A stretch of 64,000 nucleotides of DNA from Verrucomicrobiota bacterium (GCA_043775015.1 JAYVSV010000047.1:67876-131875), one strand, 5' to 3'. Shown: positions 6,346 through 63,380, counted from the first letter of the stretch. A program made the numbers and translations. Notes: generated by a model from the sequence alone, not told the origin.

Positions 6346-6356
6346 ATAATCTGGAG

Positions 6357-7823: not shown

Positions 7824-7870
7824 TCTTCAACCGCAGGCGACTCTGACCGCCTGCGGCTATCAGTGGGTCA

Positions 7871-8660: not shown

Positions 8661-8668
8661 AAACGTAT

Positions 8669-40161: not shown

Positions 40162-40186
40162 ATTTAGTTTTCCCTCAAGCAGTTCA

Positions 40187-42406: not shown

Positions 42407-42772
42407 ATGCGCCGGCGCACGTTCCGAAAGCTGAAAACGGCGGGCGAATCAGGCTTTCACCACCATGTCTATGTGGTGCTGCTTGATCCCAGGGCGGCAA
42501 AGAATCGTAAAATCATCGCTGCCAACCCGAAGCGGGATCGAAGCAAGCCTTGTGTTTATGTGGGGATGACCGGGCTTACCCCGGAGCAACGGTTTCAGAA
42601 TCACAAGAGAGGAATCAAGGCTGCCAGTATGGTGCGGCGCTTTGGGATCCATTTGCTACCTGAGCTATTCGAGTTCCTCAATCCAATGCCGTTCGATGCT
42701 GCACTTGCCATGGAGCGGGAGCTGGCCGAAGAACTGCGCGAGGCTGGTTACACCGTGGCAGGGGGAACCTAG
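42407..42772 (+). CDS. Small hypothetical protein, tentatively GIY-YIG-like
   Basis: HVYVVLL...CVYVGMTGLTPEQRFQNHKRG resembles the GIY...YIG...R..H layout, but the spacing is atypical. Tentative. Confidence 0.35.
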   Translation: MRRRTFRKLKTAGESGFHHHVYVVLLDPRAAKNRKIIAANPKRDRSKPCVYVGMTGLTPEQRFQNHKRGIKAASMVRRFGIHLLPELFEFLNPMPFDAALAMERELAEELREAGYTVAGGT

Positions 42773-42774
42773 TG

Positions 42775-42848
42775 ATTCGCGGGCTGGCGCGCGTGTGCCT
42801 TACGCGGCGGTGTCGGAGTAGGTTGTTCCATGCGTCACGCACGCTCCA
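42775..42848 (+). repeat. 74-bp repeat, copy A (direct repeat upstream of the giant gene)
   Basis: attcgcgggctggcgcgcgtgtgccttacgcggcggtgtcggagtaggttgttccatgcgtcacgcacgctcca is nearly identical to 59530-59603. Confidence 0.9.
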
Positions 42849-43060: not shown

Positions 43061-46000
43061 ATGCCATCGAATTCTGTCTTGCGTCGCCTATGGTTCCTTT
43101 TTCCATTCGTTCTGCTTCCACTCGTAGAAACCACTGCGAGGGCCAGCCCAACGATCATGCGCGTCAATCAGAACGCGCCCGTCAGTTCCAGGCGTGACGG
43201 GACTTCGTGGGCCAACGCTTACGTAAACCTATCCATGGCCATCAGCAACGCCAATCCGACGGCCAACAGTCCGGTTGAGATTTGGGTCGCTCAAGGCACC
43301 TATAAACCGACCGCCAGCACAAATCGAAATGCCACCTTTGGGCTCAAGAGTTACATGTCAATTATGGGAGGATTTGCCGGCATTGAAACAACGCCCGAAC
43401 AACGTCTGTTTTTTCAAAACGCCACCGTGTTGAGTGGTGACATTGGTCAGCCTCAGATAAACCCGATCAAAGACAGCACGAACGCACAGCCGTTCTACAA
43501 CTCGGTTTATCCGGTTGACGTGGAAGATTCCGGTCTTCGGGATAATTGCTACAACGTTGTCACCGCTGTGGGCGTTACCAACGCAGCGCTGGAGAAGCTC
43601 ATCATTGCCGGAGGCTGCGCCAATGGACTCAACACCAATGGACAACCGTATTCTCCGACACAGATTGAGGACATGGCCACGATGGCACTCACCGAGGAAA
43701 CTCAGGGCGCTGCTTTCAACGCTTTCATGGCTGGCAAACCGATGGCCGAGCTTGGACGCGCGATTGCTGGCGGCGGCATTTTTGTTTCAGACCGTTTCGA
43801 GCGATCCAGCGCGGAGCCGACTCTGGTGGTGGAACGGTGTATTGTCATGGGCAATTACGCTCTCGGCTATGGTGGAGGGATCGCGGTGCAGCAAGCCGAC
43901 ATTTTCGTCCTCGACAGCTACATTTCCGGCAATCGATCCGGCGCTGAAGGAGGTGGCTTTTGGGGACAGAACCAACACTCGGCTTTTATTGGTTGCGAGT
44001 TTCGCGCCAACACAGCTCTACTCTCGGGCGCAGGCATCCATCAGGAATCTTGGCCTTCGACAAAAACTGTTGTTCCCAGTCTGTCGGATAGTCAATTCAA
44101 GGCACAGACAACCCTCTCGCGGCAGGAATATCACAACTTCGTCGCCTCTGGCCTGGCCATGTTCAAACTCTCCGCCCTTTCCAGCTTCGTTCCGCTCGAT
44201 GATGTGGATCAGCGCGAGGCCTCCTACCGGGAATCCGAGAGATTCCAAGCGTATGTCGTCGAGAAGGATATGATTATGGGGCGGACCGCTCTGGCTCTTA
44301 TGGCGGTCAAAGGCCTTTATACTGCCTATGAAACTGGACAAGGCTCCTTGTCCCTTGGTCTCATCAAATACAAATCCGGCGGGGCGATGAACGCTTATGC
44401 CGTGGTCGCCGCCGCCGTCGCGCTGGTAGATGCGGGCTTTGCTATTGCGCAATGGGCGGGTGTCAGTCCCGACAATCAGCATGTAAAAAATTGGCAGGCT
44501 TTTAGCGGCCCTTTCAATAAGTACGCCACCATTAATGGCCTAGCTATGACCATTTCCATCGCGGCGATTTGCCATTTTACGGATTGCAACGAAAGCATCG
44601 AGACCTCTGCCTGGGACGTCAAACACTGGCAACGGCTGGCGTTCAATAGATCCGATCCCCGTACCATCACTAACTGCCGGTTCATCGACAATTTAGCTGG
44701 CAGCACCGGCGGTGGCGTTTTTGTGCTCTACGATAACGTCGATATCGAAGGTTGCGAATTTACCGGCAATCGTGCCGATGTTGGCGGAGGCGGACTTTAC
44801 CAGGGAGGTTGGAATTCATCCTTTGTTCTCAATTCCGCGTTCCGAAATAATCACTCCATCCTTGGAGAAAGCGCCATTGCCAATAAAAGCCATTGTCTCG
44901 CCGAAATCGTCAACTGCACGATCATCAACAACGGCTCCGAAGACACCAACGGTTATGCTGTTTCCAGCGACTCTGGCGCTGAAGTTCAAATCGCCAACTC
45001 GATTCTTTGGGGTAACACCAACGCTCTTGCCACAAACTCGCTCGGCGGAGCGGATGTTTTTGTGCCTACTCGCGCCTCAATTATCCAGTCAGCGCTGTCG
45101 GCTACTCCTCCCGATACAAATACTATTAAAGATCTCAAAAGCGCGGGCGCGAGTTATGTGGATTACATCGGTTTGTGCGAAATCAGCCATAGTTGTGTTC
45201 AAAGTTTGAAGCGTCTCCCCATCGGTCAGGATCATTTTGAGAAATTCGTCCTAGCTGCGGGCGATCTGGAAAAAGCCCGGGGTTTGGCCGCGGATTTTGA
45301 TTACGGCGAACCACGCGGACTCTTGCGGCTCTTCTCTTTTTATAATACCGGCGAAGGCATCCGCCCGAATTTGCTCAAGAATGGAAATATCAATTCCGAC
45401 CCCATGCTCACCGTCCATTTTGAATCCCGGTTTATAGGTTTGCAGCCGGGCGAATTCTCGCCGGTGATTGACGCCGGGACCGGGTTGCGACTGGACAACG
45501 GCTGGGTCGATAGCGGCACGGGAACGGATATTGTCGGCGAAGCGCGTGTCAAAGGCGGCAGCATTGACATGGGCTGCATTGAAAGTCAGCTCCCGCCGAC
45601 GATGTATGTTCGTCCCGCGTTTGTTGGCGGAAATGGCAGCGGCGCCAATTGGGCCAATGCGACAACCAATCTGCAATTTGCTTTGAATTCCGGTGGTAGC
45701 GTTTTCGTTGCGGCTGGCACCTACAAACCGCCGGAAAATAATCCCGCCAATCGGTTTATCCTGAAGAACGGCTGCAAAGTCTTTGGCGGTTTCAATCCCG
45801 CTGCCGGAATCACAAACCTGGCGCAGCGAAATTTCACGACCAATAAAACCATCATCAGCGGGGACATCGGCGCGATTGGAAATGATTCAGATAACAGCCG
45901 CACTCTTTTTTATGCCGAGGATGTGGATGGGCCGCAGGAGGATATTTCCGAAGGGCGACTGGAAACTTTCGTGGACGGATTTATTTTTACCAAGGCAAGA

Positions 46001-49000
46001 GGACTGGCGGTAGGAGGTGTGCCAGATGCTGCCATTGTGGCGATTCGTTCCGCTTTCGAAATCCGAAATTGCACCTTCGAGGATAACCGTACGGCAGGAC
46101 GTGGGGCCGCCGTTTATTCCACGGGAACCGCCTATGGCCCCATCCTCACTAACTGCGTTTTCACGGACAACCACGCGACTCAAGATGGCGGCGCGATATT
46201 TTATGGCTCGCGCTTGTGGGCGCGGAACTGTCAGTTCCTAAACAATAGCTCTGGTGGTTCAGGCGGCGCGGTCTGGCTCGACTCCGCTTTTGGTTACTTC
46301 TGGAATTCGTTGTTCGCAAATAACGCGGCCACCAATAACTCCGCGAATGGCGGCGCGATTTATTCTTCCGAGGCGGACCTCGTGCTTTACAGTTGCACGC
46401 TGGCAAATAACCAGGTCCGTTCCAGTTCACCGACGACACGCGGCGGGGCCGCTGTTTATTTTGTAAATAACGGCGCGAATAAATATTTCTCAGCGAAGGA
46501 ATGCATCTTCTGGCAGAACCGGGTCTTGAATTCCTCCGCCAGCCTCGAACGCCAGCAATATAGTTACGTGGTTCCAGATTCCCAGAAACTGTTTTACGTC
46601 CGCGATAGTATTGTTGAAGGCGTTCAGCCGGCGGCCCCTTATCAGCCTGATCCGCGCAATCTGGATCTCGACCCGCAATTCGTCGATGCCACGGGCGGAA
46701 ACTTCCGGTTGCGACCTTATTCACCTGCGATTGATGCGGGCCAGCGCGAACTCGGAGGCAGCGATCCAAATATTGATTTGGACGGTTTCCCGCGAGTGGC
46801 CAATGTGCGACTGGATTTGGGCGCGTACGAATTTCAAGATGCTCCCATCTTCATAAGTGCTGATCTGAAATTGACCCGTGAATGCAGATCTGAGGGGTCG
46901 ATCATTTATCTTACATTTACCAATGCGTCGGCGTTGGGAACGAATGGAGTAGGCCTGAGTTTTCAATGGCAATTAAACCGCAATGATGGAAATGGATTTC
47001 TTCCGATCACCAATGGATCAGATTACGCCGGAGTGACGACAACCAACCTGACAATTCTTCATCCGTCATTTGAGAACAACGGTTATCGCTACCGAATTTT
47101 TGCGACCAATCCCAACCTGTCCTTTTCTTCCGGCAGCGCTTATCTGTTCGTTCAACCTTCCCGACTGTATGTCAAAGCCGACGCCACCGGCAAAGGAACT
47201 GGCCGTGATTGGACCAATGCTTTTCCCACCTTGCGCGCGGCGCAAGATGCAATTGATTTATTTGAGCCGGAATTGATTTGCGCTGAAGTGTGGGTGGCAG
47301 CGGGAACCTATCTTCCGACGAGCGACGGCGATACGAATAAAACTTTTTACCTCCGTCCCAATGTGGCTTTTTACGGCGGCTTCGGCGGTTGGGAAACTAC
47401 TCGGAGCCAACGGAACTGGCGCACGAACCTCACGATTCTGAGCGGCAATCTTGGAAATCCCGCCAGCATCAGTGACAACAGCCTGACTCTCTTCCGCGCT
47501 CCTTCTCAACCACCCGTTGATGCAACGGCGATCCTCGATGGATTTATTTTGAGGGACGCGCAATATCACGCGCTCGATTTGCTCGCGGGCAGTCCCATAG
47601 TTCGGAATTGTGATTTCGTCAGCAACCTGTGCGACTCGGCCGTGAGCAGTTGGCAGTCAGCCCCGCAATTTGAAAACTGCAGATTCATGGATAACGTTTC
47701 CGTGTTTTCCACATTCCGCAGCTTCAGCGCCACGAACACATTGATTAATTGTCTTTTCGCGCGAAATCAATCGCCTCATTTAGGCGGCGCGATTTCGTCC
47801 TATTCCTCGAAAATGATTTTGCAGAACTGCACCATCGCAGATAATCACTCGGAGAACGACGGCGGCGGAATTTATCTTCAAGGAAACGGCGGACAATTCA
47901 CTCTGATCAGTTCCATCCTGTGGGGCAATCAATCGGGATCGGACGCGAGTGCGTTCGCCGCGCAAATTCATAACGATCACAACGCCGCCAGCGTTACGCT
48001 CTCCAACTCGATTGTGAGCGGTCTGCCTTTGCCCGCGATCAACGGCAATCAAGCTTTCGATCCATTGTTTGTTGGTTCTGCCAATTACCAACTCACCGCT
48101 TTCTCGCCTGCAATCAACGCCGGCGGGCCAACGAATTCTTTGACCGTTCAAACTGATTTGGCGGGAACGAATCGCGTGACTGGCGGCGCGGTGGATTGCG
48201 GCGCTTATGAATTTCAAGGCACGCCGGCAATTACTCCGGCGCTGCTGGTGCAATTGCCCAACCCCGTGACGACGTGCGTGGGCGCTGGGCCAGTCGGTTT
48301 CACGGTGGTGGGCACAAACAATCCCGAGATCGTTTACCAATGGCAGGTTAATTCCGGCGGCGGCTTCGTGACTTTATCCAACAACGCGACCTACACGATT
48401 TCGGTTTCCAGCAACAGCTCGACGCTCACCATTCCAAGTCCGACACTGGGCCTGAACAGCAATCTTTATCGCGTTACCATTCCCGCAATCAACTACACGA
48501 ATCCAGCCGTTTCCCTGACCGTGCTTCCGCCGAGTGTGTTGTATGTGAATGCGTCCGCCAGCGGTTCCACCAATGGAAGTTCGTGGGCCAACGCCTTCAC
48601 GCAATTGGAAGATGCGCTCGATATTGCAAACGGCTGCAATGAAATCTGGGTCGCGCAAGGAACGTATCAAGCGCGCACCGACCAATTTAATTTCCGACCT
48701 AACGTGCCCCTCTATGGCGGATTTATTGGAACCGAAACATTGCGCAACCAACGAAACTGGACAAACCATCCAACCGTGCTTCTGGCAAAAACCAACTCCG
48801 TGATTTTTCGGGGCAGGGGCGATTTGCAACTCATCGATGGCGCTTCCGTGTTGGATGGATTCAATTTGCACAGCGCGCAAATTGTTCCCGCCATTTCGCT
48901 CTATCAGGCCAGCCCAGTCATCCAAAACTGCACCTTCGAAAATCTTCCCGGCTCGGCGATGGACAACAGCTTCTCCAGTCCGGCGATCAGCAATTGCGTG

Positions 49001-52000
49001 TTCACCGCCTGCCAGGGAGGCGCGGTCCGTAATAGCCGCTGCGCACCGACGTTCATGAATTGTTTGTTCGCGCGAAACACAAACGGGAGCATCGGCGGAG
49101 CGATCTTCAACAACGCCGCCAGTCCATCGATTGAAAATTGCCGATTCGAAACCAACTCTGCGACGTCGGGCAGCGCGATTGAAAATGACAACGGCTCCAG
49201 CCCTGTTATTTCACGCAGCGTGTTCGTTGGAAATCGCAGCAGCAGCGGCGGAACAGTTTTCAACAATGTCGGCACCTCCGTTCAACTGATCAATTGCCTG
49301 TTCGCGGCTAACCAGTCAGACCATCTCGGCGCAGCGATTGCCAACAATGGCGCAGAACTCCTGCTGCTGAATTGCACGATGGCCAACAACCAGGCTGCGC
49401 GCGGCGGCGGTGGCATGTTTGTTTACGGCGGCCACGTCACCAGCGTGAATTCCATTTTTTGGGGCAACAGCGTGCAAGACCTCACCTTCATTCCAAACCG
49501 CGAAGTCGAACAAATTGGAACAATGCCGGGCGCAACTTTGTCCGTCACCAACACGTGCATCGAAGGATTGTCCGCTTACGTCGGCAACGGCAATGTTCGT
49601 TATGATCCACTCTTCACTGACGCTGGCGGCGGAAACTTCCGGCCCGGTGCCTCTTCACCCGCGTTAAACAGCGGCAACAATAGTGCGGTCGCCGATGTCG
49701 CCGCTGATCTCGACGGCAGTTCTCGCATCTTCGGCGGCTCGGTTGATCTGGGTGCTTACGAACGTCAGTCCGCTGCTGGCTCAATTGTCCTTTTACTTGC
49801 CGCGCCAAAATCTCAAAGCGTCTGCATCGGAGAAACTGCAACTTTCACCGCCATCGCGGAAACAAATTATGGCGGCGCGTTGCAATGGCAGGTGAACACC
49901 GGCAGCGGATTCATCGATGTCGTGGCCGATAGCACGCATCAATTCACAGTCAGCAACGGCGTTTACACGCTTCAGGTTTTGAACACGACGGTGCTGATGA
50001 CCGGGCGTAATTACCGGGTCAAAGTTGCGGCAGCAAATTATGAATCATCGAGCGCGATGCTGATTGTGTCACAGCCGGGCGTGATCTACGTGAAGGCCAA
50101 TGCGGTTGGCGCGAACAACGGTTCTTCCTGGGCGGCGGCCTACACGAATTTGCAGCAAGCGTTCGCGCAGGGAAATCGTTGTTCCGAAATCTGGGTCGCG
50201 CAGGGAACCTATCCCGCAACGCAAGCCGCCGATGGCACTTACTTTTTCTCGATGAAACCGGGCCTCGAAGTTTACGGCGGATTCGCGGGAACAGAAATTA
50301 ATCGCACCGACCGAAATCCCGCTCTCTACAAATCCATTTTGGTTGGAGTCGCCGGTGCCGAGGCGGTGGTCGTGAGTCGCGGAGATTTTTGGACGATCAA
50401 CGCCAGTTCCGTTTTGGATGGTTTCGTCATTCATGCGCCCGACAGCCACGGCATCAAAAATTTTCGGGCAAGCCCGACTATTCGTCAGTGCATGATTGAT
50501 AGCCAAAAAGGCGTGAGCGTCGCCGAGGCCATAGCCGGCGCGGGAATTTATAATCTGAATTCGTCCTCGCCGATTATCAGCGATTGCGTGCTGACCAACA
50601 ATTCATCCGGCGGCATTGTTAATTTCAACTCGTCTTCGCCGCAGATTTCGAACTGTGTTTTCCAGGCCAATAATAATTCCGGAATCATCAACGTCTCTGA
50701 CTCGAATCCGACGATCAACGGTTGCGCATTCGTGAACAATCACGCGATGAACGGCGCGGGGATTTTCAACCAAAACTCGTCGCCGCTCATCCGACGCAGT
50801 CGTTTTGAAAGCAACGTCGCCACCAATGAAGGCGGCGGCATTTTCACCATCTCCGGCACGCCAGTGTTGGAACAACTCGTGATGCTAAACAATCAAGCCG
50901 TGCGCGGTGCAGCGATGTCGCACGCCGGTGGCCTCGTGAAATTGGTGAACTCCACGCTCTATGCAAATCAAGCCAGTGGCGAAGCCGGTGGATTGTTTGG
51001 CAATGGCGCTGGCATCCAGGTGTTGAACTCAATTCTCTGGGCCAACACGGCCGGAGTCTCGGGACCCACCGTTGAACAAGCCCAGATTCAAATCAACGCG
51101 GGCACAGTGGCAATTTCAAATTCTTGCGTGCAGGGACTCAACGCCTTCGCTGGCAACGGCAATATTTCGACAGACCCGTTGTTCGTTAATCCGCCGTTGG
51201 GAAATCTATCGCTCGCGCCTCATTCGCCCTCGATCAACATCGGCAACAACAGTTTTCTCACTTCGGCAATGGCCATCGATTTCGCAGGCAACCCGCGAAC
51301 TAACGGCATCGTGGTTGATCTCGGTGCTTACGAAGCGACATCGGTTTCACCGCCCGTCACAATTTTTTCCACACCAATTTCAACGACGGTTTGTTCCGCC
51401 AGTCCCGCGAGTTTCACGGTCGTCGGCGCTGTTCCGGGAACAAATTTTATCTGGCAGGTTTACGACGGCACAAATTTCGTGGATGTGATTTCGAATTCCA
51501 CGTATCAAGTCACCAACGGCACCAACAGTTCGGTTTTAACGGTCAGTTCTGCACAAGCCGGATCGAATTACCAAATTCGTTTTCGTGTCAGCGGCACAAC
51601 GTTCACGTCGGTCCCCGTAACTCTGCAAGTGAGTCTTCCACAATTGTGGTACGTCAACGCGACGGCGACCAACGGCACGGGCGACGGTTTGTCGTGGTCG
51701 AATGCCTTCACGGACCTGCATCACGCGATGGAAGAAGTGCCCGATTGCTCGGAAGTTTGGGTGGCGGCGGGAACCTATATCGCCATGCAAGGAGAAATGT
51801 TTCATCTGCGTTCGGCCGTTGCATTTTATGGCGGCTTCTCCGGAACGGAAACCAATCGAAATCAACGCGACTGGGTTCAGCATCAAACCATCCTGGCCGC
51901 CTCGCCCGATTCGGACATGATGCATAACAACGGCGGAGAAACGTCGGTTGACCGCACGGCCATTCTGGACGGTTTCGTTATCAGCAATGCAGGCAATGTT

Positions 52001-55000
52001 TCTGCCGCGATTCAAAACCACGCCGCTTCACCTACCATTCGGAATTGCGTCTTTGCAGGGAACAATCAACGAGCCGTGCTCAACAGCGACGCGTCGCCTG
52101 CGTTCGTGAGTTGCGTTTTCAGCAACAACTCCGGTGGCGGCGTGTTGAACTGGGACAGCACGGTGGAATTCGAGCAATGCGTTTTCTCCGGCAACGGCAT
52201 CAGCGACGGCACGGTCGGCGCGGTTTACAATCAGACATCGTCCACCCAGTTCCGCGATTCCATTTTCAAAAACAATGCGGCGTTGCGCGGCGGAGCCATT
52301 GCCAACGTTTTGAGCAGCACGTCTGTCGTGGAGCGTTGTTCGTTTGAAAATAATTCAGCGAAAGTAGAAGGCGGCGCAATTCTCGGGCGGCAATCCAGCG
52401 TCAGTGTGCGGAACAGCGTGGTGGCCAATAATCGCTCGGCGGGTTACGGCGGCGCGATTGCCAATCTCAGCGGGCAACTGGAATTGGTGCAATGCACGCT
52501 CGCAGAAAACACGGCGGCGTTCAGCGGGGGCGGTGTTTACGGCAACGCTTCGCAAAGCACGGCGAGAAATTCCATTCTCTGGGGTAACCGGGTTAACACC
52601 CATGGCTCGACGTTGCAGCAGGCGCAATTGCTCGACGACAACGGAATTCTGAGCGCGACAAATTCCATCATCGAAGGATTTACTGCCGTGTCGGGCGCAA
52701 ACAACTCCGCTGCGAATCCAATTTTTGTGAATCCCGTCGCTGGTGATTTTTCTCTGATGAAAAATTCGCCGGCGATTAATTCGGGCAATGCTACGGAAAC
52801 TCTGGCGGGTTCCATTGATTATCCCGGTCAACCTCGTTTGGTTGGTGGCGGACTCGACCGCGGCGCTTTTGAATTCCAGAGTGCTCCCGGTGCTGCACTG
52901 CTTTTCGCCCGACTTCCGCAGTCGCAAACAGTTTGTGAAGGAAACTCGGTGAGTTTTGAAGTCGTGTCGCTCGGCAGCAGCAACGGCGCGCTGCAATGGC
53001 AGAAATTTTCGGGCAGTGTGTTTACGAATATTTCGAACGCTGGAAGTTACGCGATCACAACCAACGGGCCGACCAATTCGCTCGCGATTTCTCAAGCCAC
53101 GTTGAGCATGGACGGAAATTTGTTCCGCTTCGTTATTCCAAGTTCGGATTACACGTCGCCGGAAATTACTTTGCACGTCAACGCGGCTTCGGTCGTTTAC
53201 GTGAACGGCAGTAATGCGGTTTCTGGAAACGGATTCACCTGGGCTACTGCCGTCAAAACATTGCCGGAGGCCGTTGCGCTTTGGACGCCGTGTTCTGAAA
53301 TCTGGGTCGCTGCCGGAACGTATGTGCAAACCAACAACGCCGGTTTTGGTGTCTCGCTCGCTTTGCCGTCGCCCATGCGAATTTACGGCGGATTCGTCGG
53401 CACGGAAACCAATCGCAATCAGCGTAACTGGCCGGCCAACGTGACCCGCCTCGCCACCTCCAGCACTCGGCCATTGTTTGAAAATTTCGGAAGCCTCGCG
53501 ACGATCGACCATTTGGCCGTGCTGGACGGGCTGACTTTTTCTGGCGCAAAAGGCAATGCGATTTTCAATCACCTGGCTTCTCCCACGATTCGCAACTGCA
53601 CCTTTGAAAATAATTCGGTAGCGATATTTAATTCGCAACAATCCAGCCCGCTGATCGCGAATTGCGTGTTCCGCAACAACACGAATCTTTTTGGCGGCGC
53701 GGTTTACAGTCACGCTTCGTCACCGACGATTGAGGATTGCGTGTTCCAGAATAATCGATCTCTCGAACGGGGCGGCGCCATGCTGATGATCGGCGGCAAC
53801 GCGGTCGTAACCCGATCTCAATTCCTGAATAACCGCAGCGAAAAATTCGGCGGCGCGATTTTCGTCGAAGGCGACGGTTACATGTCGGTGGCGCAATCTT
53901 CATTTGTCAGCAATAGCGCGGCGGATTGGGGCGGTGCGTTTACCATCTCCGAAAGCGCCGGGATTATTTCCGATTGTTTGTTCGCGCGGAACCGTTCGGA
54001 TTATCGCGGCGGTGCCATCACGGTTTTGGCATCGGACGTTGCAGTTAAAAACTGCACGATCGTGGAAAACGAAGCGGGATGGACTGGAGGCGGAATTCAA
54101 GTTTACGACCCGGGTTTGACCATCACGAATTCCATCCTTTGGAGCAATCGCCAGGGCAATACGCAGGAAAGTTTGGAACGCAGGCAAATCGCTTATTCGT
54201 TGAGTGCAACTCCTGTTGTCGTCAACACAGTCGTCGAAGGACTCGATGCGCTCAGCGGAAATGGGAATCAAAACTTTGATCCGCTTTTCGTAAATGCTGC
54301 GTTCGGAAATTTTCGACTCACACAATTCAGTCCGGCGATTAATTCGGGCGTTGGCATCGCTGCTGGAACGACTGACCTCGATGGCAATCCTCGTGTTGTG
54401 GACGGAACTTTGGATCGCGGCGCTTTTGAGTTTCAAACCGCCACAGGAACTGACCCGCGATTTTACCTCTACCAAATGCCGCAGTCAGCGACGGTCTGCG
54501 TCGGCGATTCCGCCTTTCTGTCGTTTACGTTCCTGCCAAATCCGGTGTTGAGTTACATGTGGCAACTCAACACGGGCAGCGGTTGGTCCACTGCGCCGAT
54601 TAACAACGGAACGTATTTCCTCACCGTCACGACCAATTCGTCCACGCTGATGGTTTCGAACGTGACGGTAGGAATGAGTGGAACGCAATACCGGTTTATT
54701 GCGTCGTCGAATAATTTTCCAAGCACCTTCGCATCGCCGCCCGCAACGATCACCGTTTCTGTTCCCGGCGTTCTGTTCGTAAAACAAAACGCCGTGGGCA
54801 ATAACTCCGGCACGGATTGGGCGAACGCCTTCACGAATCTGAATCTCGCCATCAACGCGGCCAATCGTTGTTCAGAAATTTGGGTGGCGAGCGGCAATTA
54901 TCTGCCTTCAACAAACGGCGCAGTGGCGATGAAAGACGGCGTCGAAATTTACGGCGGATTCGCTGGCGCAGAAACCTCCGTTTCACAACGCAACTGGACG

Positions 55001-58000
55001 AACAATCCGACAATACTCAGCGGCAACAGTGCGAGCGGCTACCTCGTCAACAACGGATTCTATGCTCCAGTGACGCGCGCCGCCGCGCTCGATGGATTTA
55101 TCATCACCGGCACGAACCTGACTACCGGCCTTGTGAACACACACGCCAGTCCGACCATTCGCAACTGCCAGTTTATCAGCAATCGCTACATCGCTTCGTC
55201 TGTCACCAGCGATTCTCATCCGTTGTTCGAAAATTGTTTGTTCTACAGCAATAATTTTGGAGCGATCGATATTCGCGACAACAGTTCGGCCGTCATCACA
55301 AATTGCGCTTTCAACGGCAACACGACTGAAGGACAGGGCGGCGCGTTGAGCGTTTTGAATTCCACAGTGGTCGTGGACAGAAGTAGTTTTGCTTCCAATT
55401 TCTCGGCATACGGCGGCGGCGCAATTTTCCTCAACCAAGGCGGCGGTATCACTGCGCGGCACTGCATTTTCACTGGCAACTCCGCCAATGGCGAAGGCGC
55501 AGCCCTCCTCGCTGAACCGGGTGCGAGTGTCGTCACAATGACCAACTGCCTGATCGTTCGGGGTTCGGCGTTCACGGGCGGCGGCGTTTCCAGTTACGCA
55601 CCGATTACGGTGGTGAACTGCACTTTCGCAGCGAACACGGCTTACGCGCGTGGCAGCGGTTTGTTCATCAGCGGAACCACCGGCTCAGTGCGCAACACAA
55701 TTCTTTGGGCTAACTCCGACACTTACTCCGCATACGGCAATTTGGAACTGGCGCAACTCGAAGCGCCCGGTGCCACAATTTTAATTGCGAATTCAGTTCT
55801 CCAAGGTCTGTCGAATTACGTCGGCAATTCCAACGTGCCTTACGATCCATTGTTCGTTGATGCCGCACAAAATAATTTTCGATTGCAGGACAATTATTCA
55901 CCCGCCGCGAACGCGGGAAATAATTCTTACATCGCCGGAGTCGGTTCAGATCTCGACAACAACGCACGCATTTTCTCCAGCACAGCCGTGGACATCGGCG
56001 CTTATGAGTCGCTGACGTTCAGCGGCACGCCGGTTTACATTTTGAAACAGCCGGAGTCGGTCGTCACTTGCAACGGCGAAACCGTTAACTTCTCCGTCAC
56101 TGGCGCATCCGGAATGGGAGCTGGATTTACGTGGCAGAAAAAATCGCCGGGCGGAATTTTTGAGACGGTGGTTGCTGGCGGAAATTACAGCATCGCGACA
56201 AACAATTCTTCGTCCACGCTCACGATTCAAAATGTCAGCACGTCGCTCAGCGGTTCCGAATTCCGAATTCGTTACCTCCCGCCTTCCGGTCAATATTTCA
56301 GTCCGCCCGCGCAACTCACGGTCACTGCGCCAAAAGTTATTTTCGTCAAAGCAACCGGATACGTTGATGGCGACGGCGAAAGTTGGTCCACCCCTTACAC
56401 CTCGCTTCAAACCGCCTTGGCCGCCGCCAGTTCCTGTCGCCCCGAAATTTGGATTGCTGCTGGAACTTACTATCCAACCGCCGGCACGAACCAATCGGAC
56501 AGTTTCGACATTCCAAATGGCATTCGTGTCTATGGCGGTTTCGCCGGAACAGAGACGTTGTTGTCTCAACGCAATTGGACGAGCAATCAAGTGGTATTGA
56601 GCGGCGACATTGGCGCGATTGGAAATACAAACGACAACAGTTCGTATGTCGTTTCGTTCAATGGATTGGGGAACCCGATCAATCAATCCACGATTCTGGA
56701 CGGAGTCACAATTGAACGAGGTCAGAGCGCCGGCCTGATTATCTTTTACGCCAGCCCGACCGTGCGCAATTGCGTGGTCCGATCCAATAACGGCTCCGGC
56801 CTCAACCTTACCGGCGGCGGACCACGGGTGGAACAATGCACCTTCCACTCCAATCGCGGCGCGAGCGGCGCCAACGTGACCGACGCGGTGAATGCGGCGT
56901 TTGTGAACTGCCATTTCTCGGGCAACACGTCCGCATCTCTCGGCGGCGGCATTTCTTTGGTGAACAGCACAGTCGGTTTGACGAACTGTCTTGTCTCCGG
57001 GAACACCGCCTCGTTTGGTGCCGGTGTCGGGTCCTTCGGCGGCACAGCCTCGATGATCAATTGCACCGTCGTGGGAAGTGCTTCGACGGGAAGTTCCGGC
57101 GCGGGCCTGGGTGCGTCCAGCGGAAATTGGTCGGTGCGCAACAGTATTCTCTGGGGCAATCGTGCAGGCGCGTTGGAAACCGAAGCCGCGCAATTATCAT
57201 TCTCCGGCAGCTTCAGCGTGAGCTACACGGCGATCCAAGGATTGTCCGGTTTCAACGGAAATTTCAATCAAGGTGCCGATCCTATTTTCGCCGCCCCGGT
57301 TTTAGCCACCCTCGCTCCCACACTGCTTGGCGACTACACGCTCGGAACTTGCTCAGCGCTGCTGAACGACGCCGACGCCAGCGCTCTCGCCGGGATAACC
57401 AACGATCTCGCCGGGAATCCACGCCAGGCCAACGGAGGTCCTGATCCGGGCGCATTCGAATTGCAAACACTCGGCGGCGATCCGGTCTATATCGCTTCTC
57501 AGCCAACCAATATTATTTATTGCTCTTCGCAATCGAATTTTTTCCAGGTGACGGCCTCGTTTTCAAATCTCAATGTGCTGACTTACCAATGGAAAATATT
57601 TGATCCGAACAGCGCGACATTTCTCCCCGTGACAAACAGCGCGGTATTCTCAGGCGCGAATACGCCGAAGCTCGATGTCCAGTCGCCCACGCCTGATCTC
57701 AGCGCCGCACAATTTCGCGTTACCGTCACGACGCCGATTGGATGCTCCGCTATTTCGCAATCCGCCCAATTGCTAATTCCCTCTCAGCAAACGTACGTGC
57801 GCGCCGGCGCTCCTCCTGGTGGCAACGGACTTTCGTGGGCCACCGCCTACACCAATTTGCAGTCAGCAATTCTTTCCACATGCGCCCCGGAAATTTGGGT
57901 GGCCGAAGGCACCAACTTTTCGAGCACTGCTTTTACATTGCGCAACGGCGTGGCGGTTTATGGAGGGTTTACTGGCACGGAAACGAACCGAAACCAGCGC

Positions 58001-59416
58001 AACTGGATAACTCATCCCACTAAATTATCGAGCAGCGATTGGTATGTCATGGACATCATGCCTTCTGCTGGAAATCCGATGGATTCCTCTGCGCGTCTGG
58101 ACGGCTTCATCATCGATGGTGCCGACAATGCTCTTAACATCTGGGGCCTGGAAGCGTCGGCTTCTCCGGTCTTCGCCAACTGCGTGTTTAAGAACACCCG
58201 GAACCCCGCCATCTACCTTCAAGACTGCTCGCCGTCCTTCCAGGACTGCACTTTCGATAACAACAACACACTCGGAACTTCATCCAGTGGCGGAGCTCTT
58301 AGTGCGTGGAACTGCACCGTGAATATCGACCGCTGCATGTTCCGCGGAAACCGAGCTTCTTACGGTGGTGCCATCGCCGGTGGCGGTGGTGCCTTCCATA
58401 TCGCGAACTCTCTGTTCAGCGGCAACCGTTCCACCTACTATGGTTCCGCTCTCAGCATCAATGACCCGTTCGTTCTGCGTAACTGCACCGTCACCGGCAA
58501 CCGTTCTCTCCAAACTTACGGGGCGGTTTCTGGCGGTACGGTTACCCTGATCAACTCAATCGTCTGGAATAACCAAGGTAATTCTGGCTTTGATTTTCAG
58601 TCGCAGTTTGACGTCGGCGACTCACTCACGCTCAGCAATACCATTGCGCAAGGTTATAACCCTGATGACTACTGGTGGGTCCAGGGCAGCGGCATCAGCA
58701 GCGCAAATCCGCTCTTCCTTGCGGCAGTGAATCCAGCGAGTGCGCCAACCACCGTCGGCGACTTGCGCGTTGCTTCCTGCTCGCCAGCCATCGACAGCGG
58801 GATCAATGCGGAAACCGTTGGGCTGATCGACATCGTCGGCAATCCGCGAATTGCGGGAGCTGCTACGGACATGGGTGCATACGAAGCACTCCCCAGCTCG
58901 CTTTTGATGGTCACACTTCAACCGACGAGCACCTTCGGTAATGGTTCCACTTCTGTACAATTCTCGGTAGTCGTCAACCAAACCAACGTTAATTATCAAT
59001 GGGAAAGTAATATTTCCAACCTCTTCACAGCACTGTCCAACGGCGCCGGTTACTCAGGCGTGACGACTGCAACATTGACGCTGACCAATCCCGCTCCTTC
59101 TCTGAACACAAACGAATATCGCTGTCGCATTCAGGACTCGTCTGGATGCGTGGTTTACTCTCAAGCGGCGCGCTTCCATTTTCTCCTTAGCCCCGTGATC
59201 TCCACCGCGGTAATTGCCAGTGGTCAATTGAAAATCGAATTCACCAGTTCACCTGGCGCGACTTTCACAATCTTCGGAACGACGAATATTTCCCTCCCGA
59301 TAAGCCAGTGGACCCTGTTAGGCGGTGCCGCAGAAATTTCTCCGGGTCAATTCCAGTTCACAGAATCAATCGTCATAAACCGTCCCGCGCAATTTTATCG
59401 AGTAAGGTCTCCATAA
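43061..59416 (+). CDS. Giant secreted modular protein (about 5,451 aa): ten tandem beta-helix (PbH1 / choice-of-anchor-Q-like) modules, most followed by an Ig-like domain, ending in a ...QFYRVRSP C-terminal domain
   Basis: One uninterrupted ORF with a signal-peptide-like MPSNSVLRRLWFLFPFVLLPLVETTARA. Module starts are near 43153, 45602, 47165, 48539, 50084, 51647, 53195, 54773, 56339 and 57791. Each carries W(V/I)A.G(T/N)Y, YGGF.G.E....QRNW and NC.F..N coils, then NSI(L/F)WGN...DP(L/I)F...SPAI(N/D).G...GAYE. Most also carry an Ig-like segment, often with a YQWQ-type motif. Confidence 0.85.
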   Translation: MPSNSVLRRLWFLFPFVLLPLVETTARASPTIMRVNQNAPVSSRRDGTSWANAYVNLSMAISNANPTANSPVEIWVAQGTYKPTASTNRNATFGLKSYMSIMGGFAGIETTPEQRLFFQNATVLSGDIGQPQINPIKDSTNAQPFYNSVYPVDVEDSGLRDNCYNVVTAVGVTNAALEKLIIAGGCANGLNTNGQPYSPTQIEDMATMALTEETQGAAFNAFMAGKPMAELGRAIAGGGIFVSDRFERSSAEPTLVVERCIVMGNYALGYGGGIAVQQADIFVLDSYISGNRSGAEGGGFWGQNQHSAFIGCEFRANTALLSGAGIHQESWPSTKTVVPSLSDSQFKAQTTLSRQEYHNFVASGLAMFKLSALSSFVPLDDVDQREASYRESERFQAYVVEKDMIMGRTALALMAVKGLYTAYETGQGSLSLGLIKYKSGGAMNAYAVVAAAVALVDAGFAIAQWAGVSPDNQHVKNWQAFSGPFNKYATINGLAMTISIAAICHFTDCNESIETSAWDVKHWQRLAFNRSDPRTITNCRFIDNLAGSTGGGVFVLYDNVDIEGCEFTGNRADVGGGGLYQGGWNSSFVLNSAFRNNHSILGESAIANKSHCLAEIVNCTIINNGSEDTNGYAVSSDSGAEVQIANSILWGNTNALATNSLGGADVFVPTRASIIQSALSATPPDTNTIKDLKSAGASYVDYIGLCEISHSCVQSLKRLPIGQDHFEKFVLAAGDLEKARGLAADFDYGEPRGLLRLFSFYNTGEGIRPNLLKNGNINSDPMLTVHFESRFIGLQPGEFSPVIDAGTGLRLDNGWVDSGTGTDIVGEARVKGGSIDMGCIESQLPPTMYVRPAFVGGNGSGANWANATTNLQFALNSGGSVFVAAGTYKPPENNPANRFILKNGCKVFGGFNPAAGITNLAQRNFTTNKTIISGDIGAIGNDSDNSRTLFYAEDVDGPQEDISEGRLETFVDGFIFTKARGLAVGGVPDAAIVAIRSAFEIRNCTFEDNRTAGRGAAVYSTGTAYGPILTNCVFTDNHATQDGGAIFYGSRLWARNCQFLNNSSGGSGGAVWLDSAFGYFWNSLFANNAATNNSANGGAIYSSEADLVLYSCTLANNQVRSSSPTTRGGAAVYFVNNGANKYFSAKECIFWQNRVLNSSASLERQQYSYVVPDSQKLFYVRDSIVEGVQPAAPYQPDPRNLDLDPQFVDATGGNFRLRPYSPAIDAGQRELGGSDPNIDLDGFPRVANVRLDLGAYEFQDAPIFISADLKLTRECRSEGSIIYLTFTNASALGTNGVGLSFQWQLNRNDGNGFLPITNGSDYAGVTTTNLTILHPSFENNGYRYRIFATNPNLSFSSGSAYLFVQPSRLYVKADATGKGTGRDWTNAFPTLRAAQDAIDLFEPELICAEVWVAAGTYLPTSDGDTNKTFYLRPNVAFYGGFGGWETTRSQRNWRTNLTILSGNLGNPASISDNSLTLFRAPSQPPVDATAILDGFILRDAQYHALDLLAGSPIVRNCDFVSNLCDSAVSSWQSAPQFENCRFMDNVSVFSTFRSFSATNTLINCLFARNQSPHLGGAISSYSSKMILQNCTIADNHSENDGGGIYLQGNGGQFTLISSILWGNQSGSDASAFAAQIHNDHNAASVTLSNSIVSGLPLPAINGNQAFDPLFVGSANYQLTAFSPAINAGGPTNSLTVQTDLAGTNRVTGGAVDCGAYEFQGTPAITPALLVQLPNPVTTCVGAGPVGFTVVGTNNPEIVYQWQVNSGGGFVTLSNNATYTISVSSNSSTLTIPSPTLGLNSNLYRVTIPAINYTNPAVSLTVLPPSVLYVNASASGSTNGSSWANAFTQLEDALDIANGCNEIWVAQGTYQARTDQFNFRPNVPLYGGFIGTETLRNQRNWTNHPTVLLAKTNSVIFRGRGDLQLIDGASVLDGFNLHSAQIVPAISLYQASPVIQNCTFENLPGSAMDNSFSSPAISNCVFTACQGGAVRNSRCAPTFMNCLFARNTNGSIGGAIFNNAASPSIENCRFETNSATSGSAIENDNGSSPVISRSVFVGNRSSSGGTVFNNVGTSVQLINCLFAANQSDHLGAAIANNGAELLLLNCTMANNQAARGGGGMFVYGGHVTSVNSIFWGNSVQDLTFIPNREVEQIGTMPGATLSVTNTCIEGLSAYVGNGNVRYDPLFTDAGGGNFRPGASSPALNSGNNSAVADVAADLDGSSRIFGGSVDLGAYERQSAAGSIVLLLAAPKSQSVCIGETATFTAIAETNYGGALQWQVNTGSGFIDVVADSTHQFTVSNGVYTLQVLNTTVLMTGRNYRVKVAAANYESSSAMLIVSQPGVIYVKANAVGANNGSSWAAAYTNLQQAFAQGNRCSEIWVAQGTYPATQAADGTYFFSMKPGLEVYGGFAGTEINRTDRNPALYKSILVGVAGAEAVVVSRGDFWTINASSVLDGFVIHAPDSHGIKNFRASPTIRQCMIDSQKGVSVAEAIAGAGIYNLNSSSPIISDCVLTNNSSGGIVNFNSSSPQISNCVFQANNNSGIINVSDSNPTINGCAFVNNHAMNGAGIFNQNSSPLIRRSRFESNVATNEGGGIFTISGTPVLEQLVMLNNQAVRGAAMSHAGGLVKLVNSTLYANQASGEAGGLFGNGAGIQVLNSILWANTAGVSGPTVEQAQIQINAGTVAISNSCVQGLNAFAGNGNISTDPLFVNPPLGNLSLAPHSPSINIGNNSFLTSAMAIDFAGNPRTNGIVVDLGAYEATSVSPPVTIFSTPISTTVCSASPASFTVVGAVPGTNFIWQVYDGTNFVDVISNSTYQVTNGTNSSVLTVSSAQAGSNYQIRFRVSGTTFTSVPVTLQVSLPQLWYVNATATNGTGDGLSWSNAFTDLHHAMEEVPDCSEVWVAAGTYIAMQGEMFHLRSAVAFYGGFSGTETNRNQRDWVQHQTILAASPDSDMMHNNGGETSVDRTAILDGFVISNAGNVSAAIQNHAASPTIRNCVFAGNNQRAVLNSDASPAFVSCVFSNNSGGGVLNWDSTVEFEQCVFSGNGISDGTVGAVYNQTSSTQFRDSIFKNNAALRGGAIANVLSSTSVVERCSFENNSAKVEGGAILGRQSSVSVRNSVVANNRSAGYGGAIANLSGQLELVQCTLAENTAAFSGGGVYGNASQSTARNSILWGNRVNTHGSTLQQAQLLDDNGILSATNSIIEGFTAVSGANNSAANPIFVNPVAGDFSLMKNSPAINSGNATETLAGSIDYPGQPRLVGGGLDRGAFEFQSAPGAALLFARLPQSQTVCEGNSVSFEVVSLGSSNGALQWQKFSGSVFTNISNAGSYAITTNGPTNSLAISQATLSMDGNLFRFVIPSSDYTSPEITLHVNAASVVYVNGSNAVSGNGFTWATAVKTLPEAVALWTPCSEIWVAAGTYVQTNNAGFGVSLALPSPMRIYGGFVGTETNRNQRNWPANVTRLATSSTRPLFENFGSLATIDHLAVLDGLTFSGAKGNAIFNHLASPTIRNCTFENNSVAIFNSQQSSPLIANCVFRNNTNLFGGAVYSHASSPTIEDCVFQNNRSLERGGAMLMIGGNAVVTRSQFLNNRSEKFGGAIFVEGDGYMSVAQSSFVSNSAADWGGAFTISESAGIISDCLFARNRSDYRGGAITVLASDVAVKNCTIVENEAGWTGGGIQVYDPGLTITNSILWSNRQGNTQESLERRQIAYSLSATPVVVNTVVEGLDALSGNGNQNFDPLFVNAAFGNFRLTQFSPAINSGVGIAAGTTDLDGNPRVVDGTLDRGAFEFQTATGTDPRFYLYQMPQSATVCVGDSAFLSFTFLPNPVLSYMWQLNTGSGWSTAPINNGTYFLTVTTNSSTLMVSNVTVGMSGTQYRFIASSNNFPSTFASPPATITVSVPGVLFVKQNAVGNNSGTDWANAFTNLNLAINAANRCSEIWVASGNYLPSTNGAVAMKDGVEIYGGFAGAETSVSQRNWTNNPTILSGNSASGYLVNNGFYAPVTRAAALDGFIITGTNLTTGLVNTHASPTIRNCQFISNRYIASSVTSDSHPLFENCLFYSNNFGAIDIRDNSSAVITNCAFNGNTTEGQGGALSVLNSTVVVDRSSFASNFSAYGGGAIFLNQGGGITARHCIFTGNSANGEGAALLAEPGASVVTMTNCLIVRGSAFTGGGVSSYAPITVVNCTFAANTAYARGSGLFISGTTGSVRNTILWANSDTYSAYGNLELAQLEAPGATILIANSVLQGLSNYVGNSNVPYDPLFVDAAQNNFRLQDNYSPAANAGNNSYIAGVGSDLDNNARIFSSTAVDIGAYESLTFSGTPVYILKQPESVVTCNGETVNFSVTGASGMGAGFTWQKKSPGGIFETVVAGGNYSIATNNSSSTLTIQNVSTSLSGSEFRIRYLPPSGQYFSPPAQLTVTAPKVIFVKATGYVDGDGESWSTPYTSLQTALAAASSCRPEIWIAAGTYYPTAGTNQSDSFDIPNGIRVYGGFAGTETLLSQRNWTSNQVVLSGDIGAIGNTNDNSSYVVSFNGLGNPINQSTILDGVTIERGQSAGLIIFYASPTVRNCVVRSNNGSGLNLTGGGPRVEQCTFHSNRGASGANVTDAVNAAFVNCHFSGNTSASLGGGISLVNSTVGLTNCLVSGNTASFGAGVGSFGGTASMINCTVVGSASTGSSGAGLGASSGNWSVRNSILWGNRAGALETEAAQLSFSGSFSVSYTAIQGLSGFNGNFNQGADPIFAAPVLATLAPTLLGDYTLGTCSALLNDADASALAGITNDLAGNPRQANGGPDPGAFELQTLGGDPVYIASQPTNIIYCSSQSNFFQVTASFSNLNVLTYQWKIFDPNSATFLPVTNSAVFSGANTPKLDVQSPTPDLSAAQFRVTVTTPIGCSAISQSAQLLIPSQQTYVRAGAPPGGNGLSWATAYTNLQSAILSTCAPEIWVAEGTNFSSTAFTLRNGVAVYGGFTGTETNRNQRNWITHPTKLSSSDWYVMDIMPSAGNPMDSSARLDGFIIDGADNALNIWGLEASASPVFANCVFKNTRNPAIYLQDCSPSFQDCTFDNNNTLGTSSSGGALSAWNCTVNIDRCMFRGNRASYGGAIAGGGGAFHIANSLFSGNRSTYYGSALSINDPFVLRNCTVTGNRSLQTYGAVSGGTVTLINSIVWNNQGNSGFDFQSQFDVGDSLTLSNTIAQGYNPDDYWWVQGSGISSANPLFLAAVNPASAPTTVGDLRVASCSPAIDSGINAETVGLIDIVGNPRIAGAATDMGAYEALPSSLLMVTLQPTSTFGNGSTSVQFSVVVNQTNVNYQWESNISNLFTALSNGAGYSGVTTATLTLTNPAPSLNTNEYRCRIQDSSGCVVYSQAARFHFLLSPVISTAVIASGQLKIEFTSSPGATFTIFGTTNISLPISQWTLLGGAAEISPGQFQFTESIVINRPAQFYRVRSP

Positions 59417-59529
59417 TGATTTTTGTGGCCAGCTTTGTCTTGCAACGAAAATTCATTCCCCGGTTCTTAGGTTGAGCGATCTGAGTGAGGATTCGCTTCT
59501 CTTCACCCACTCTATTAATTATTTTAGTC

Positions 59530-59603
59530 ATTCGCGGGCTGGCGCGCGTGTGCCTTACGCGGCGGTGTCGGGGTGGGTTGTTCCATGCGTCTCTCACGCT
59601 CCA
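59530..59603 (+). repeat. 74-bp repeat, copy B (direct repeat downstream of the giant gene)
   Basis: Same sequence as 42775-42848 apart from a handful of substitutions, and in the same orientation. Confidence 0.9.
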
Positions 59604-59857
59604 GCTCAACTCTTGCTCAAATGTTTTCTCCACCCCTACCGCCCGGCTGCGTCGGGTATGCGAGCATCGCAGGTCGTATTTCGGTGGGCTGCCCCTCCTT
59701 GCCGCTCCCACTCGCGCGCCCGACCGAGCGGCTCTCTTCATCCACGCGGCCGACAAATCAAACTGTCCTGGTTGTGCCAGCCACCACGGGCGTGCGAGGA
59801 GAGGCACAAGGACAAGAAGCTTGCCCCGCTTCGCGGGATGGCGTAACAAAAAAAAAG

Positions 59858-59890
59858 CGCCCATCTTTCACGAGGGCGCTTTGGAACTGG
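59858..59890 (-). terminator. Rho-independent terminator for the minus-strand gene 59902-60687
   Basis: On the minus strand the agcgccc/gggcgct stem (11-nt loop) is followed by a run of nine T. It starts 12 nt after the stop codon. Confidence 0.75.
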
Positions 59891-59901
59891 TCGATAACAA
59901 A

Positions 59902-60687: not shown

Positions 60688-60891
60688 AATGTCACATTGC
60701 CTATTTTTAAATCATTATCAAGCTAAAAAGTGGCCATTAAAAGGACATCATGCGCTGACCATTTTCTCTCCCAGCTCCGGTCGGGCTGGTCCTCCCTCCG
60801 CTGGGGATGGACAAAGAACAAACAAAAACATAACCTCAACCTTGTCCAAGGACTATAACACATGGACTGGACCAGAAAAGTGACCCGTTCA

Positions 60892-61698: not shown

Positions 61699-61844
61699 AT
61701 CTTCGTTTTTATCGAGCTGTTCGCAGGCAATGATAGGGCTGATCCGTTGCGCTTTTTTCCGTCAGCCTGACCGCAAGCGGCGCGCTTCGGTCACGTAAAG
61801 CTTGACCCATGTCGCGGCGATGCAAAAGACTTGAGCGATAATCT

Positions 61845-62207: not shown

Positions 62208-62274
62208 CGCTGGGTGAAATTTTTGAGCGTGAGATGTTCGACTCGATTTTAATTAAGCTGCGCGGTTTGAAGGC

Positions 62275-63345: not shown

Positions 63346-63380
63346 AAGGCAGATGCTCTATCCAACTGAGCTACGGGCGC
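63304..63380 (-). tRNA. tRNA-Arg (anticodon TCT) with encoded CCA
   Basis: The reverse complement folds by hand into a cloverleaf: acceptor GCGCCCG/CGGGCGC, D stem GCTC/GAGC, anticodon stem TCTGC/GCAGA with loop CTTCTAA, T stem CCGCG/CGCGG with loop TTCGAGT, then ACCA. Confidence 0.9.

Follow-up and report, generated by a model that had tools for sequence, protein, structure and literature searches.

A 5,451-residue protein of ten capped beta-helix modules belongs to an uncharacterised family of Verrucomicrobiota giants and carries a C-terminal tail domain found on other proteins

What role can be assigned to a single 16.4-kb gene that encodes ten beta-helix modules in tandem? The question is raised by the interval 43061-59416 of a 64,000-nucleotide (nt) stretch of DNA from a Verrucomicrobiota bacterium (GCA_043775015.1 JAYVSV010000047.1:67876-131875), which was analysed over its whole length and is called the window here. 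Examination of this interval indicated that its giant open reading frame (ORF) is a real and intact chromosomal gene, and that the product (the window protein) is a member of a large, uncharacterised family of giant Verrucomicrobiota proteins that is already in the databases, not a new kind of system. The reading that we favour, at a probability of roughly 0.55, is that the protein is exported through the Sec pathway and serves as a non-catalytic surface fibre or adhesin that binds polysaccharide or particles, with a small C-terminal tail domain for retention or sorting. Soil, water and guts harbour Verrucomicrobiota in abundance, and the construction of the cell surface in these bacteria is little understood; the gene provides a clean and complete representative of a family for which each owner spends 15-22 kb of coding sequence.

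Translation of the window confirmed the uninterrupted frame of about 5,451 codons behind a signal-peptide-like N-terminus that had been proposed from the DNA alone (hereafter the original prediction). The frame has no internal stops, its stop codon lies at 59414-59416, and the N-terminus, MPSNSVLRRLWFLFPFVLLPLVETTARA followed by S, reads as a Sec signal peptide whose likely cleavage site was placed by the AXA rule. The G+C content of the gene (0.53-0.56) matches that of its flanks. Since no 20-mer is present twice within the ORF, repeat collapse or expansion is no concern; the best DNA match between modules is 48-73 nt long at 74-93% identity, and at the protein level modules 2-10 share 27-38% identity, in agreement with the earlier view that they are too clearly diverged for a recent event of this kind. 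In addition, the homologous frames of 11 independent assemblies (Verrucomicrobiota by label, or probably mis-binned) remain free of stops over more than 4,200 amino acids (aa), up to the end of the fetched locus; a complete Opitutaceae chromosome and the cultured Oleiharenicola lentus are among these assemblies. An assembly artefact, or a pseudogene in decay, whose long frame would be spurious and due to repeat mis-assembly, is therefore barely credible. Although the exact protein is not in the protein collections and the gene is bracketed by a 79-nt direct repeat inside which a short-read contig breaks, the ORF offers nothing to mis-assemble, a stop-free frame of 16.4 kb is unexpected by chance, and the ten modules recur in unchanged order in the relative P0142. 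The contig break is, we infer, the expected behaviour of a k=31 graph at an exact 42-mer repeat.

The array itself was resolved with a hidden Markov model (HMM) built from modules 2-10, the protein being cut at ten start points for alignment. This independent model reproduced the ten module starts of the original prediction, with caps beginning at the residues listed in Table 1 and, in nucleotides, at the first position of each module; the start first given for module 1 (43153) was merely about 10 nt early and out of frame. Modules 2-10 (458-541 aa as cut) aligned with one another end to end, and the alignment matched the sizes estimated by eye, about 815 aa for the first module and about 460-540 aa for the others, the differences in length arising because the number of coils differs. 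Family scans bore out the proposed four-part anatomy, in which each module consists of a cap, a stack of beta-helix coils, a closing segment of the choice-of-anchor-Q type and, except in module 1, an immunoglobulin-like (Ig) domain. PF13229 Beta_helix scored 61.5, 101.3, 134.4 and 31.5 bits over four stretches covering modules 2-10 (gathering score 25.9), and PF02415 Chlam_PMP (55 and 41.7 bits) and TIGR01376 (36.4 bits) recognised the repeated GGA(I/L/V) and FxxN motifs of the coils. At the closing segment, NF041518 choice_anch_Q reached 75 bits in modules 2-3, 94.3 in modules 4-6, 69.7 in modules 7-9 and 34 in module 10 (cut-off 25), with 2, 3, 2 and 1 passing stretches, respectively; just nine stretches passed the E-value over five scans, so that a match of its own is demonstrated for fewer than ten modules. 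PF17161 DUF5123 also matched this segment in modules 2-10 (together with choice_anch_Q, 34-94 bits per scanned stretch). The Ig_3 and I-set scores in modules 2-10 were near threshold, and positions 418-512 of the nine-module profile match a titin I-set domain.

In the nine-module alignment, the invariant residues of the cap are W, GGF, the R of QRNW, and DG, and those of the closing segment are W.N, P.F, S, D, R and D.GA.E. The coil region is invariant at C, F, N, G and T only, with no conserved acid or base, a pattern of conservation that, judged from the alignment, appears structural and not catalytic. This bears on the possibility that the protein is an extracellular multi-enzyme, each beta-helix being a lyase, hydrolase, epimerase or esterase in a cellulosome-like degradation of glycans, as has been proposed for a giant of the Planctomycetota-Verrucomicrobiota-Chlamydiota (PVC) group with tandem CASH domains (PMC12057145). 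Enzymes of the PL1, PL6, GH28, CE8 and AlgE types fold as right-handed beta-helices, the top Foldseek matches of module 1 are exopolygalacturonase 3jur, polygalacturonase 1bhe and AlgE4/6, and the module profile has a weak match (E=8e-4) in the PL6 alginate lyase 7dmk. Nevertheless, we consider a multi-enzyme unlikely, since no carbohydrate-active enzyme family, PL1, PL6, GH28 and CE8 included, is present at E≤0.01 in Pfam and NCBIfam scans, the nine modules have no invariant acidic or basic residue in their coils, structure comparison gave only generic and weak matches (TMq ≤0.25), and the repeats are of the PMP type, as in adhesins. The match to 7dmk falls at chain residues 525-744, far from the N-terminus and presumably outside the catalytic part of that enzyme.

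Module 1 (about 813-817 aa) is indeed longer than the others, as originally described, yet by the alignments it is a family-specific N-terminal unit with two conserved insertions and not merely a longer module. It aligns over about 800 aa with the N-termini of seven giant relatives at 32-38% identity, yielded no Pfam match in the family scan, and scored 20.4 bits for choice_anch_Q, under the 25-bit cut-off. The motif W..FS..FN.YAT, conserved in relatives, lies within the insertion in the beta-helix, at aa 478-489. The same insertion holds, at aa 445-463, the sole strongly hydrophobic 19-mer of the protein (Kyte-Doolittle hydropathy 2.05). Since the homologous helix in relatives holds several Asp or Glu residues, this segment is read as a buried or amphipathic helix and not as a membrane span, and we weakly reject it as a transmembrane anchor. 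Structure prediction was confined to module 1 and the tail. For module 1, where a fold comparison had been suggested in the original prediction, AlphaFold2 gave a confident beta-helix core, but Foldseek returned only weak and generic matches to beta-helix enzymes and tailspikes (best E about 1e-3, TM-score 0.25/0.43).

The architecture is not singular. An exhaustive search with the module profile over 1.84 billion cluster representatives (50% identity) matched 284,138 proteins at a threshold of E≤1e-3, of which 60,486 also passed E≤1e-30. The same array occurs in dozens of these representatives, in P0142 module for module. A word-indexed search, which gave matches of at most 921 aa for a 526-aa query and at most 140 aa for the tail, missed the giants and found tail fragments only. 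The best 150 profile matches are all multi-module proteins of 1,861-7,792 aa. Among the 149 proteins longer than 2,000 aa, five or more caps are present in 114 and eight or more in 52; two or more complete cap-to-Ig modules occur in 36 and an FYR-like ending in 33, the two occurring together in 27. By the same measures the window protein has 10 caps and 6 full-length cap-to-Ig HMM matches. About 30 of the top 150 combine an N-terminal module bearing the helical insertion with Ig spacers and an FYR beta-sandwich of about 70 residues. The window protein likewise has the module 1 insertion and its motif, at least eight capped, Ig-spaced modules in order, and an FYR tail; the family so delimited is a grouping made here, without a curated model. 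Its members are named 'hypothetical' or 'right-handed parallel beta-helix repeat-containing protein' in the sources, whereas 'predicted outer membrane repeat protein' is the name given to single-module relatives, many of which have tails of the type IX secretion system (T9SS). The original prediction had allowed that this exact architecture might belong to a characterised family of known function; a family exists, yet it is uncharacterised.

The giant relatives, which include P0142 (JGI, 6,771 aa), P0140, P0143, HWV99442.1 (labelled Candidatus Acidoferrum) and a protein of Oleiharenicola lentus (NZ_JBOZXB010000001.1:1131225), share with the window protein a signal peptide, a module 1 with the same insertion and the motif W..FS..FN.YATP, 8-11 capped beta-helix modules separated by Ig spacers, conservation by position of the first two and last two modules, and the FYR tail. 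In P0142, the closest relative, modules 1-10 pair one to one with those of the window protein at 33-51% identity at best, and the best paralog inside the window protein (27-38%) falls below each of these pairings. In more remote members, the two modules at either end of the array hold their positions and the central ones are interchangeable. The ordered one-to-one pairing indicates that the array is an old structure of fixed order and not a recently expanding repeat, and this order spans long evolutionary distances. Most relatives differ from the window protein in carrying an extra 0.7-2.7 kaa (thousand aa) between the last module and the tail, which by eye is cadherin-like, FG-GAP/VCBS, NHL or glycine-rich; the window protein has no such extension, and P0147 and P0167 are short in the same way.

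A profile search of genomes, as originally suggested, again led to Verrucomicrobiota. When the module 1 alignment was scanned against one genome per GTDB species, full-length relatives were found only on contigs labelled Verrucomicrobiota (including Verrucomicrobiia, Verrucomicrobiales, Pedosphaera and Opitutaceae), plus two that are probably mis-binned, and weaker, partial matches occurred in Bacteroidota and Planctomycetota. Carriers include the cultured Oleiharenicola lentus 23ND54W-5, which makes the family open to experiment, and a complete Opitutaceae chromosome. The two exceptions, DASRLE010000158.1 (L007, labelled Candidatus Saccharimonadales) and DATMRF010000044.1 (L011, labelled Candidatus Acidoferrum), have full-length relatives of module 1 and are regarded as probably mis-binned because all other such relatives are in Verrucomicrobiota. 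At a further locus (GCA_037975565.1, JBBCBH010011739.1, 942-21425), a giant homologue with a module 1-like start is split by frame changes into about 20 called genes, with cadherin/Big_9-like pieces behind it; the locus is probably a single giant gene whose assembly contains many frameshifts. No conserved gene order was found around the giant gene in relatives. Two Opitutaceae loci have a weak match to a TonB receptor near the giant homologue (24-25%).

Several better-known systems resemble the window protein in part. The module is shared at 28-33% identity, over about 80% of its length, with T9SS beta-helix/choice-of-anchor-Q proteins of Bacteroidota, for example the single-module P0015 ('T9SS type A sorting domain-containing protein', Chitinophagaceae bacterium LB-8) and the multi-module P0159 and P0184. 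These proteins are secreted to the surface, have arrays of up to 14 caps and end in a C-terminal domain of about 75 aa; however, this domain is Por_Secre_tail (PF18962) and not FYR, they contain no complete cap-to-Ig module, and they lack module 1. Of the multi-module giants that lack an FYR ending, eight were sampled, and each of them terminates in PF18962. No match to Por_Secre_tail (PF18962 / TIGR04183) was obtained in the window protein, whereas the positive control recovered it in 8/8 other giants, and identity as T9SS cargo was rejected on this ground.

The coils, with their GGA(I/L/V) and FxxN motifs, are like the right-handed beta-helix coils of the chlamydial polymorphic membrane proteins (Pmp; PF02415 / TIGR01376). 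Pmp proteins act as surface adhesins. They are, however, type V autotransporters of about 1,000 aa with one helix and a C-terminal beta-barrel, whereas the window protein has ten separately capped helices. We rejected identity as a Pmp autotransporter because neither a beta-barrel nor a Pmp middle domain was detected with Pfam (whole protein, E≤0.01; last 98 aa, E≤1) and the last 77 aa are predicted to form a six-strand sandwich. The best match among solved structures, Rhombotarget A of Acinetobacter (RbtA; PDB 9cdu; E=1e-7, profile positions 202-335), spans a few PMP-type coils only; TIGR04212 scored 16.3 bits against a cut-off of 295, and the window protein has neither a GlyGly-CTERM nor a hydrophobic C-terminal segment, so that a rhombosortase target was also rejected. 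The same applies to PEP-CTERM, LPXTG and RTX/type I secretion adhesins, none of which appeared in NCBIfam and Pfam scans of a protein that ends ...QFYRVRSP.

Very long secreted or surface proteins with beta-helical regions and no assigned function have been described in Omnitrophota and other PVC bacteria (West-Roberts et al., 10.1101/2023.11.21.568195). Compared by architecture alone, these differ from the window protein by their antiparallel beta-helices, by regions of SecA-like and dockerin type, by transmembrane segments and by a size that reaches 30-85 kaa. Some PVC giants have been interpreted as contact-dependent weapons or predation factors, in which a long stalk delivers an effector into neighbouring cells (10.1101/2023.11.21.568195; PMC12057145). 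For the window protein such a role is very improbable: family scans found no toxin, peptidase, Rhs, nuclease or lysozyme domain anywhere in the protein, the 77-aa tail follows directly on module 10 and leaves no room for a C-terminal effector, and no immunity-like gene was found downstream.

The original prediction had listed toxin, protease, autotransporter barrel and LPXTG/PEP-CTERM tail as missing, and the scans agree, but it overlooked the conserved C-terminal beta-sandwich of about 70 aa. An HMM made from three sequences, this tail included, scores the giant's tail at E=2e-44, and AlphaFold2 on 25 aligned tails gave a six-strand sandwich with a predicted local distance difference test score (pLDDT) of 91. 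The same 25 tails had no convincing match in Pfam or NCBIfam. Three proteins in the window carry the domain. The second is a secreted protein (ORF 24540-27605, plus strand) composed of an unassigned N-terminal region, three Ig domains, another unassigned region and then the tail, which was recognised by an HMM that lacked this sequence. The third, a PD40/TSP3 repeat protein (ORF 37030-40227), has a tail that aligns in register with 40 others; its E-value of 1.9e-17 stems from an HMM containing that very sequence, and the three-sequence HMM gives the value in Table 1. A metagenome scan seeded with the motif EISPGQFQ yielded 80 loci with 87 tail matches, and in 85/87 the tail lies 0-6 residues from the stop codon. 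Beta-helix modules are present in three of the host ORFs, and the hosts sampled contain Kelch propellers, FG-GAP repeats, LamG with Ig, or no assignable domain. By a crude heuristic, 25/39 complete hosts have a signal-peptide-like N-terminus.

These observations show that the tail is strictly C-terminal and promiscuous across hosts. This unannotated domain is the most promising lead from the locus and may matter more than the giant itself, since it offers a concrete handle on the sorting or tethering of surface proteins. A tentative proposal is that the FYR tail is an undescribed sorting or anchoring signal of Verrucomicrobiota, a counterpart of the T9SS C-terminal domain or of PEP-CTERM with its own export or attachment machinery; the giant would then be its largest cargo, and the two other tail-bearing proteins of the window may be further cargo. 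Searches of the literature returned nothing specific on a C-terminal sorting signal in Verrucomicrobiota.

As first suggested, the product of the locus is still best read as an adhesin, a surface component or a binder of polysaccharide. We envisage that the exported protein would form a beads-on-a-string fibre, with ten rigid beta-helix beads and Ig hinges as spacers, whose length would be of the order of 100 nm by a geometric estimate ((~12 coils x 0.48 nm + ~4 nm Ig) per module x ten). Such a fibre would be displayed at or outside the cell surface and would act by binding particles, polysaccharide or other cells instead of by catalysis, and the tail would retain or sort it at the surface, from the position that the T9SS sorting domain occupies in the Bacteroidota proteins with the same modules. 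The sequence analysis shows the gene with its anatomy, its place in the family, the conserved order of the array and the C-terminal, promiscuous character of the tail; surface location, a binding role in place of a catalytic one and the function of the tail are what we infer.

The protein could instead have a structural role alone in the envelope, for example as a surface-layer or sheath-like fibril with no specific ligand. This would fit the retention of module number and order between distant relatives, the occurrence of the family across several Verrucomicrobiota lineages and the composition of the protein, which is acidic (net charge about -103), poor in Lys (1.2%) and rich in Asn, Ser and Gly. 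The tools used here cannot separate this from an adhesin. We nevertheless regard it as rather doubtful, since the large, variable C-terminal extensions of most relatives suit variable binding better than a lattice and a single 16-kb gene is a costly route to an abundant layer.

Several points weigh against the surface fibre or adhesin proposed here. The fold is common to pectate and alginate lyases, GH28 enzymes and epimerases, which are the top, if weak, Foldseek matches, and single modules could hold active sites of their own that an alignment across all modules would mask. In the AlphaFold2 model of module 1, the insertion is a helical region with a confidence below 50, compared to a pLDDT of 85-93 for the beta-helix core. 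For the tail, Foldseek found generic Ig/Fn3/CBM48-like sandwiches alone (best E 0.02), and a specific fold was accordingly rejected; no homology to the T9SS C-terminal domain was detected (hhalign probability 0.2%). No recurrent partner gene stands beside tail-bearing genes: the neighbours that do recur are either shadow ORFs on the antisense strand or genes with housekeeping functions (CbiX, prephenate dehydrogenase, EPSP synthase, DnaG, TPR) and come from one related locus group with a common gene order. The evidence equally allows that the tail is a plain C-terminal binding or cell-wall-attachment module that needs no dedicated machinery, and the proposal as it stands leaves unexplained how a protein of 5,451 aa would cross the outer membrane. 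No paper was found in literature searches on the family and on choice-of-anchor Q, and no member has been characterised. Finally, the window protein is missing from both protein collections (it is outside the top 150 of its own module profile, and exact look-up was negative), so that the continuity of this particular ORF rests on one assembly together with the relatives.

An exact look-up of the giant and four of its neighbours found none of them in the collection, probably because of start-codon choice, and the giant gene may have been uncalled or filtered in the source annotation. Several neighbouring genes, unlike the giant, do occur in protein collections (NCBI contig, Logan contigs). An independent contig of the same organism (Logan SRR23617268, 100% identical) spans just 59542-63367.

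Table 1. Positions in the window of the giant gene, its modules and insertions, the tail domains and the flanking repeat.
Feature	Coordinates	Strand	Cap start (aa)	Remarks
Giant ORF with stop	43061..59416	+		5,451 codons; ATG start, in-frame alternative GTG at 43040
Putative Sec-type signal peptide, aa 1-28	43061..43144	+		RR n-region, hydrophobic core, cut between ARA and S; from translation
Module 1, aa 35-847	43163..45601	+	35	N-terminal unit: cap, beta-helix, choice-of-anchor-Q-like closure, no Ig
Module 1 beta-helix insertion, aa 333-531	44057..44653	+		about 200 aa, predicted helical; alignment and AlphaFold2 (<50)
Module 1 second conserved insertion, about aa 669-779	45065..45397	+		inside closing segment; alignment A2; borders approximate, low model confidence
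Module 2, 521 aa	45602..47164	+	848	cap, PMP-type coils, choice-of-anchor-Q closure, Ig; position-specific across family
Module 3, 458 aa	47165..48538	+	1369	fewer coils than other modules
Module 4, 515 aa	48539..50083	+	1827	family scans, module alignment
Module 5, 521 aa	50084..51646	+	2342	family scans, module alignment
Module 6, 516 aa	51647..53194	+	2863	family scans, module alignment
Module 7, 526 aa	53195..54772	+	3379	reference module
Module 8, 522 aa	54773..56338	+	3905	family scans, module alignment
Module 9, 484 aa	56339..57790	+	4427	'penultimate' type, kept across family
Module 10, 458 aa cap to Ig	57791..59164	+	4911	'last' type, kept across family
C-terminal tail of giant, aa 5375-5451 (77 aa)	59183..59413	+		ends ...PAQFYRVRSP and stop; predicted six-strand beta-sandwich
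Tail domain, second secreted protein (ORF 24540-27605)	27390..27602	+		exact C-terminus; E=3.6e-13
Tail domain, PD40/TSP3 repeat protein (ORF 37030-40227)	37039..37254	-		C-terminus; three-sequence HMM E=0.28
79-nt direct repeat, upstream copy	42770..42848	+		begins at stop codon of upstream ORF
79-nt direct repeat, downstream copy	59525..59603	+		109 nt past stop of giant

The two copies of the 79-nt repeat are about 95% identical and have an exact 42-mer in common; a short-read contig of the same organism ends inside the repeat. No further copies exist in the window, no exact match was found in JGI metagenome contigs, and the repeat shows no RNA structure signal (z=0.24) and no promoter or terminator consensus. 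A plus-strand ORF that begins in the downstream copy looks non-coding. It may be a scar left by recombination; alternatively, it may be a dispersed repeat or a regulatory element that the two sites share.

The neighbours of the giant gene (a DUF1559/N-methyl pseudopilin-like protein, the PD40/TSP3 protein, a TonB receptor and a cbb3 oxidase) are consistent with a PVC chromosome. A gene for a rhomboid-family protease (Rhomboid and DUF6576; 36012-36890, plus strand) is convergent with the PD40/TSP3 gene and lies 140 nt from its 3' end; no link between this protease and the tail, which has no membrane span, was seen. A complete MmeI-type restriction-modification enzyme with all five MmeI domains is encoded at 240-3458 (plus strand). 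The cbb3-type oxidase cluster at 5184-13664 (minus strand) contains a fused CcoN-CcoO (COX1 and FixO in one 747-aa ORF), together with a FixG-like ferredoxin, a DsbD-like protein and a copper-type P-type ATPase.

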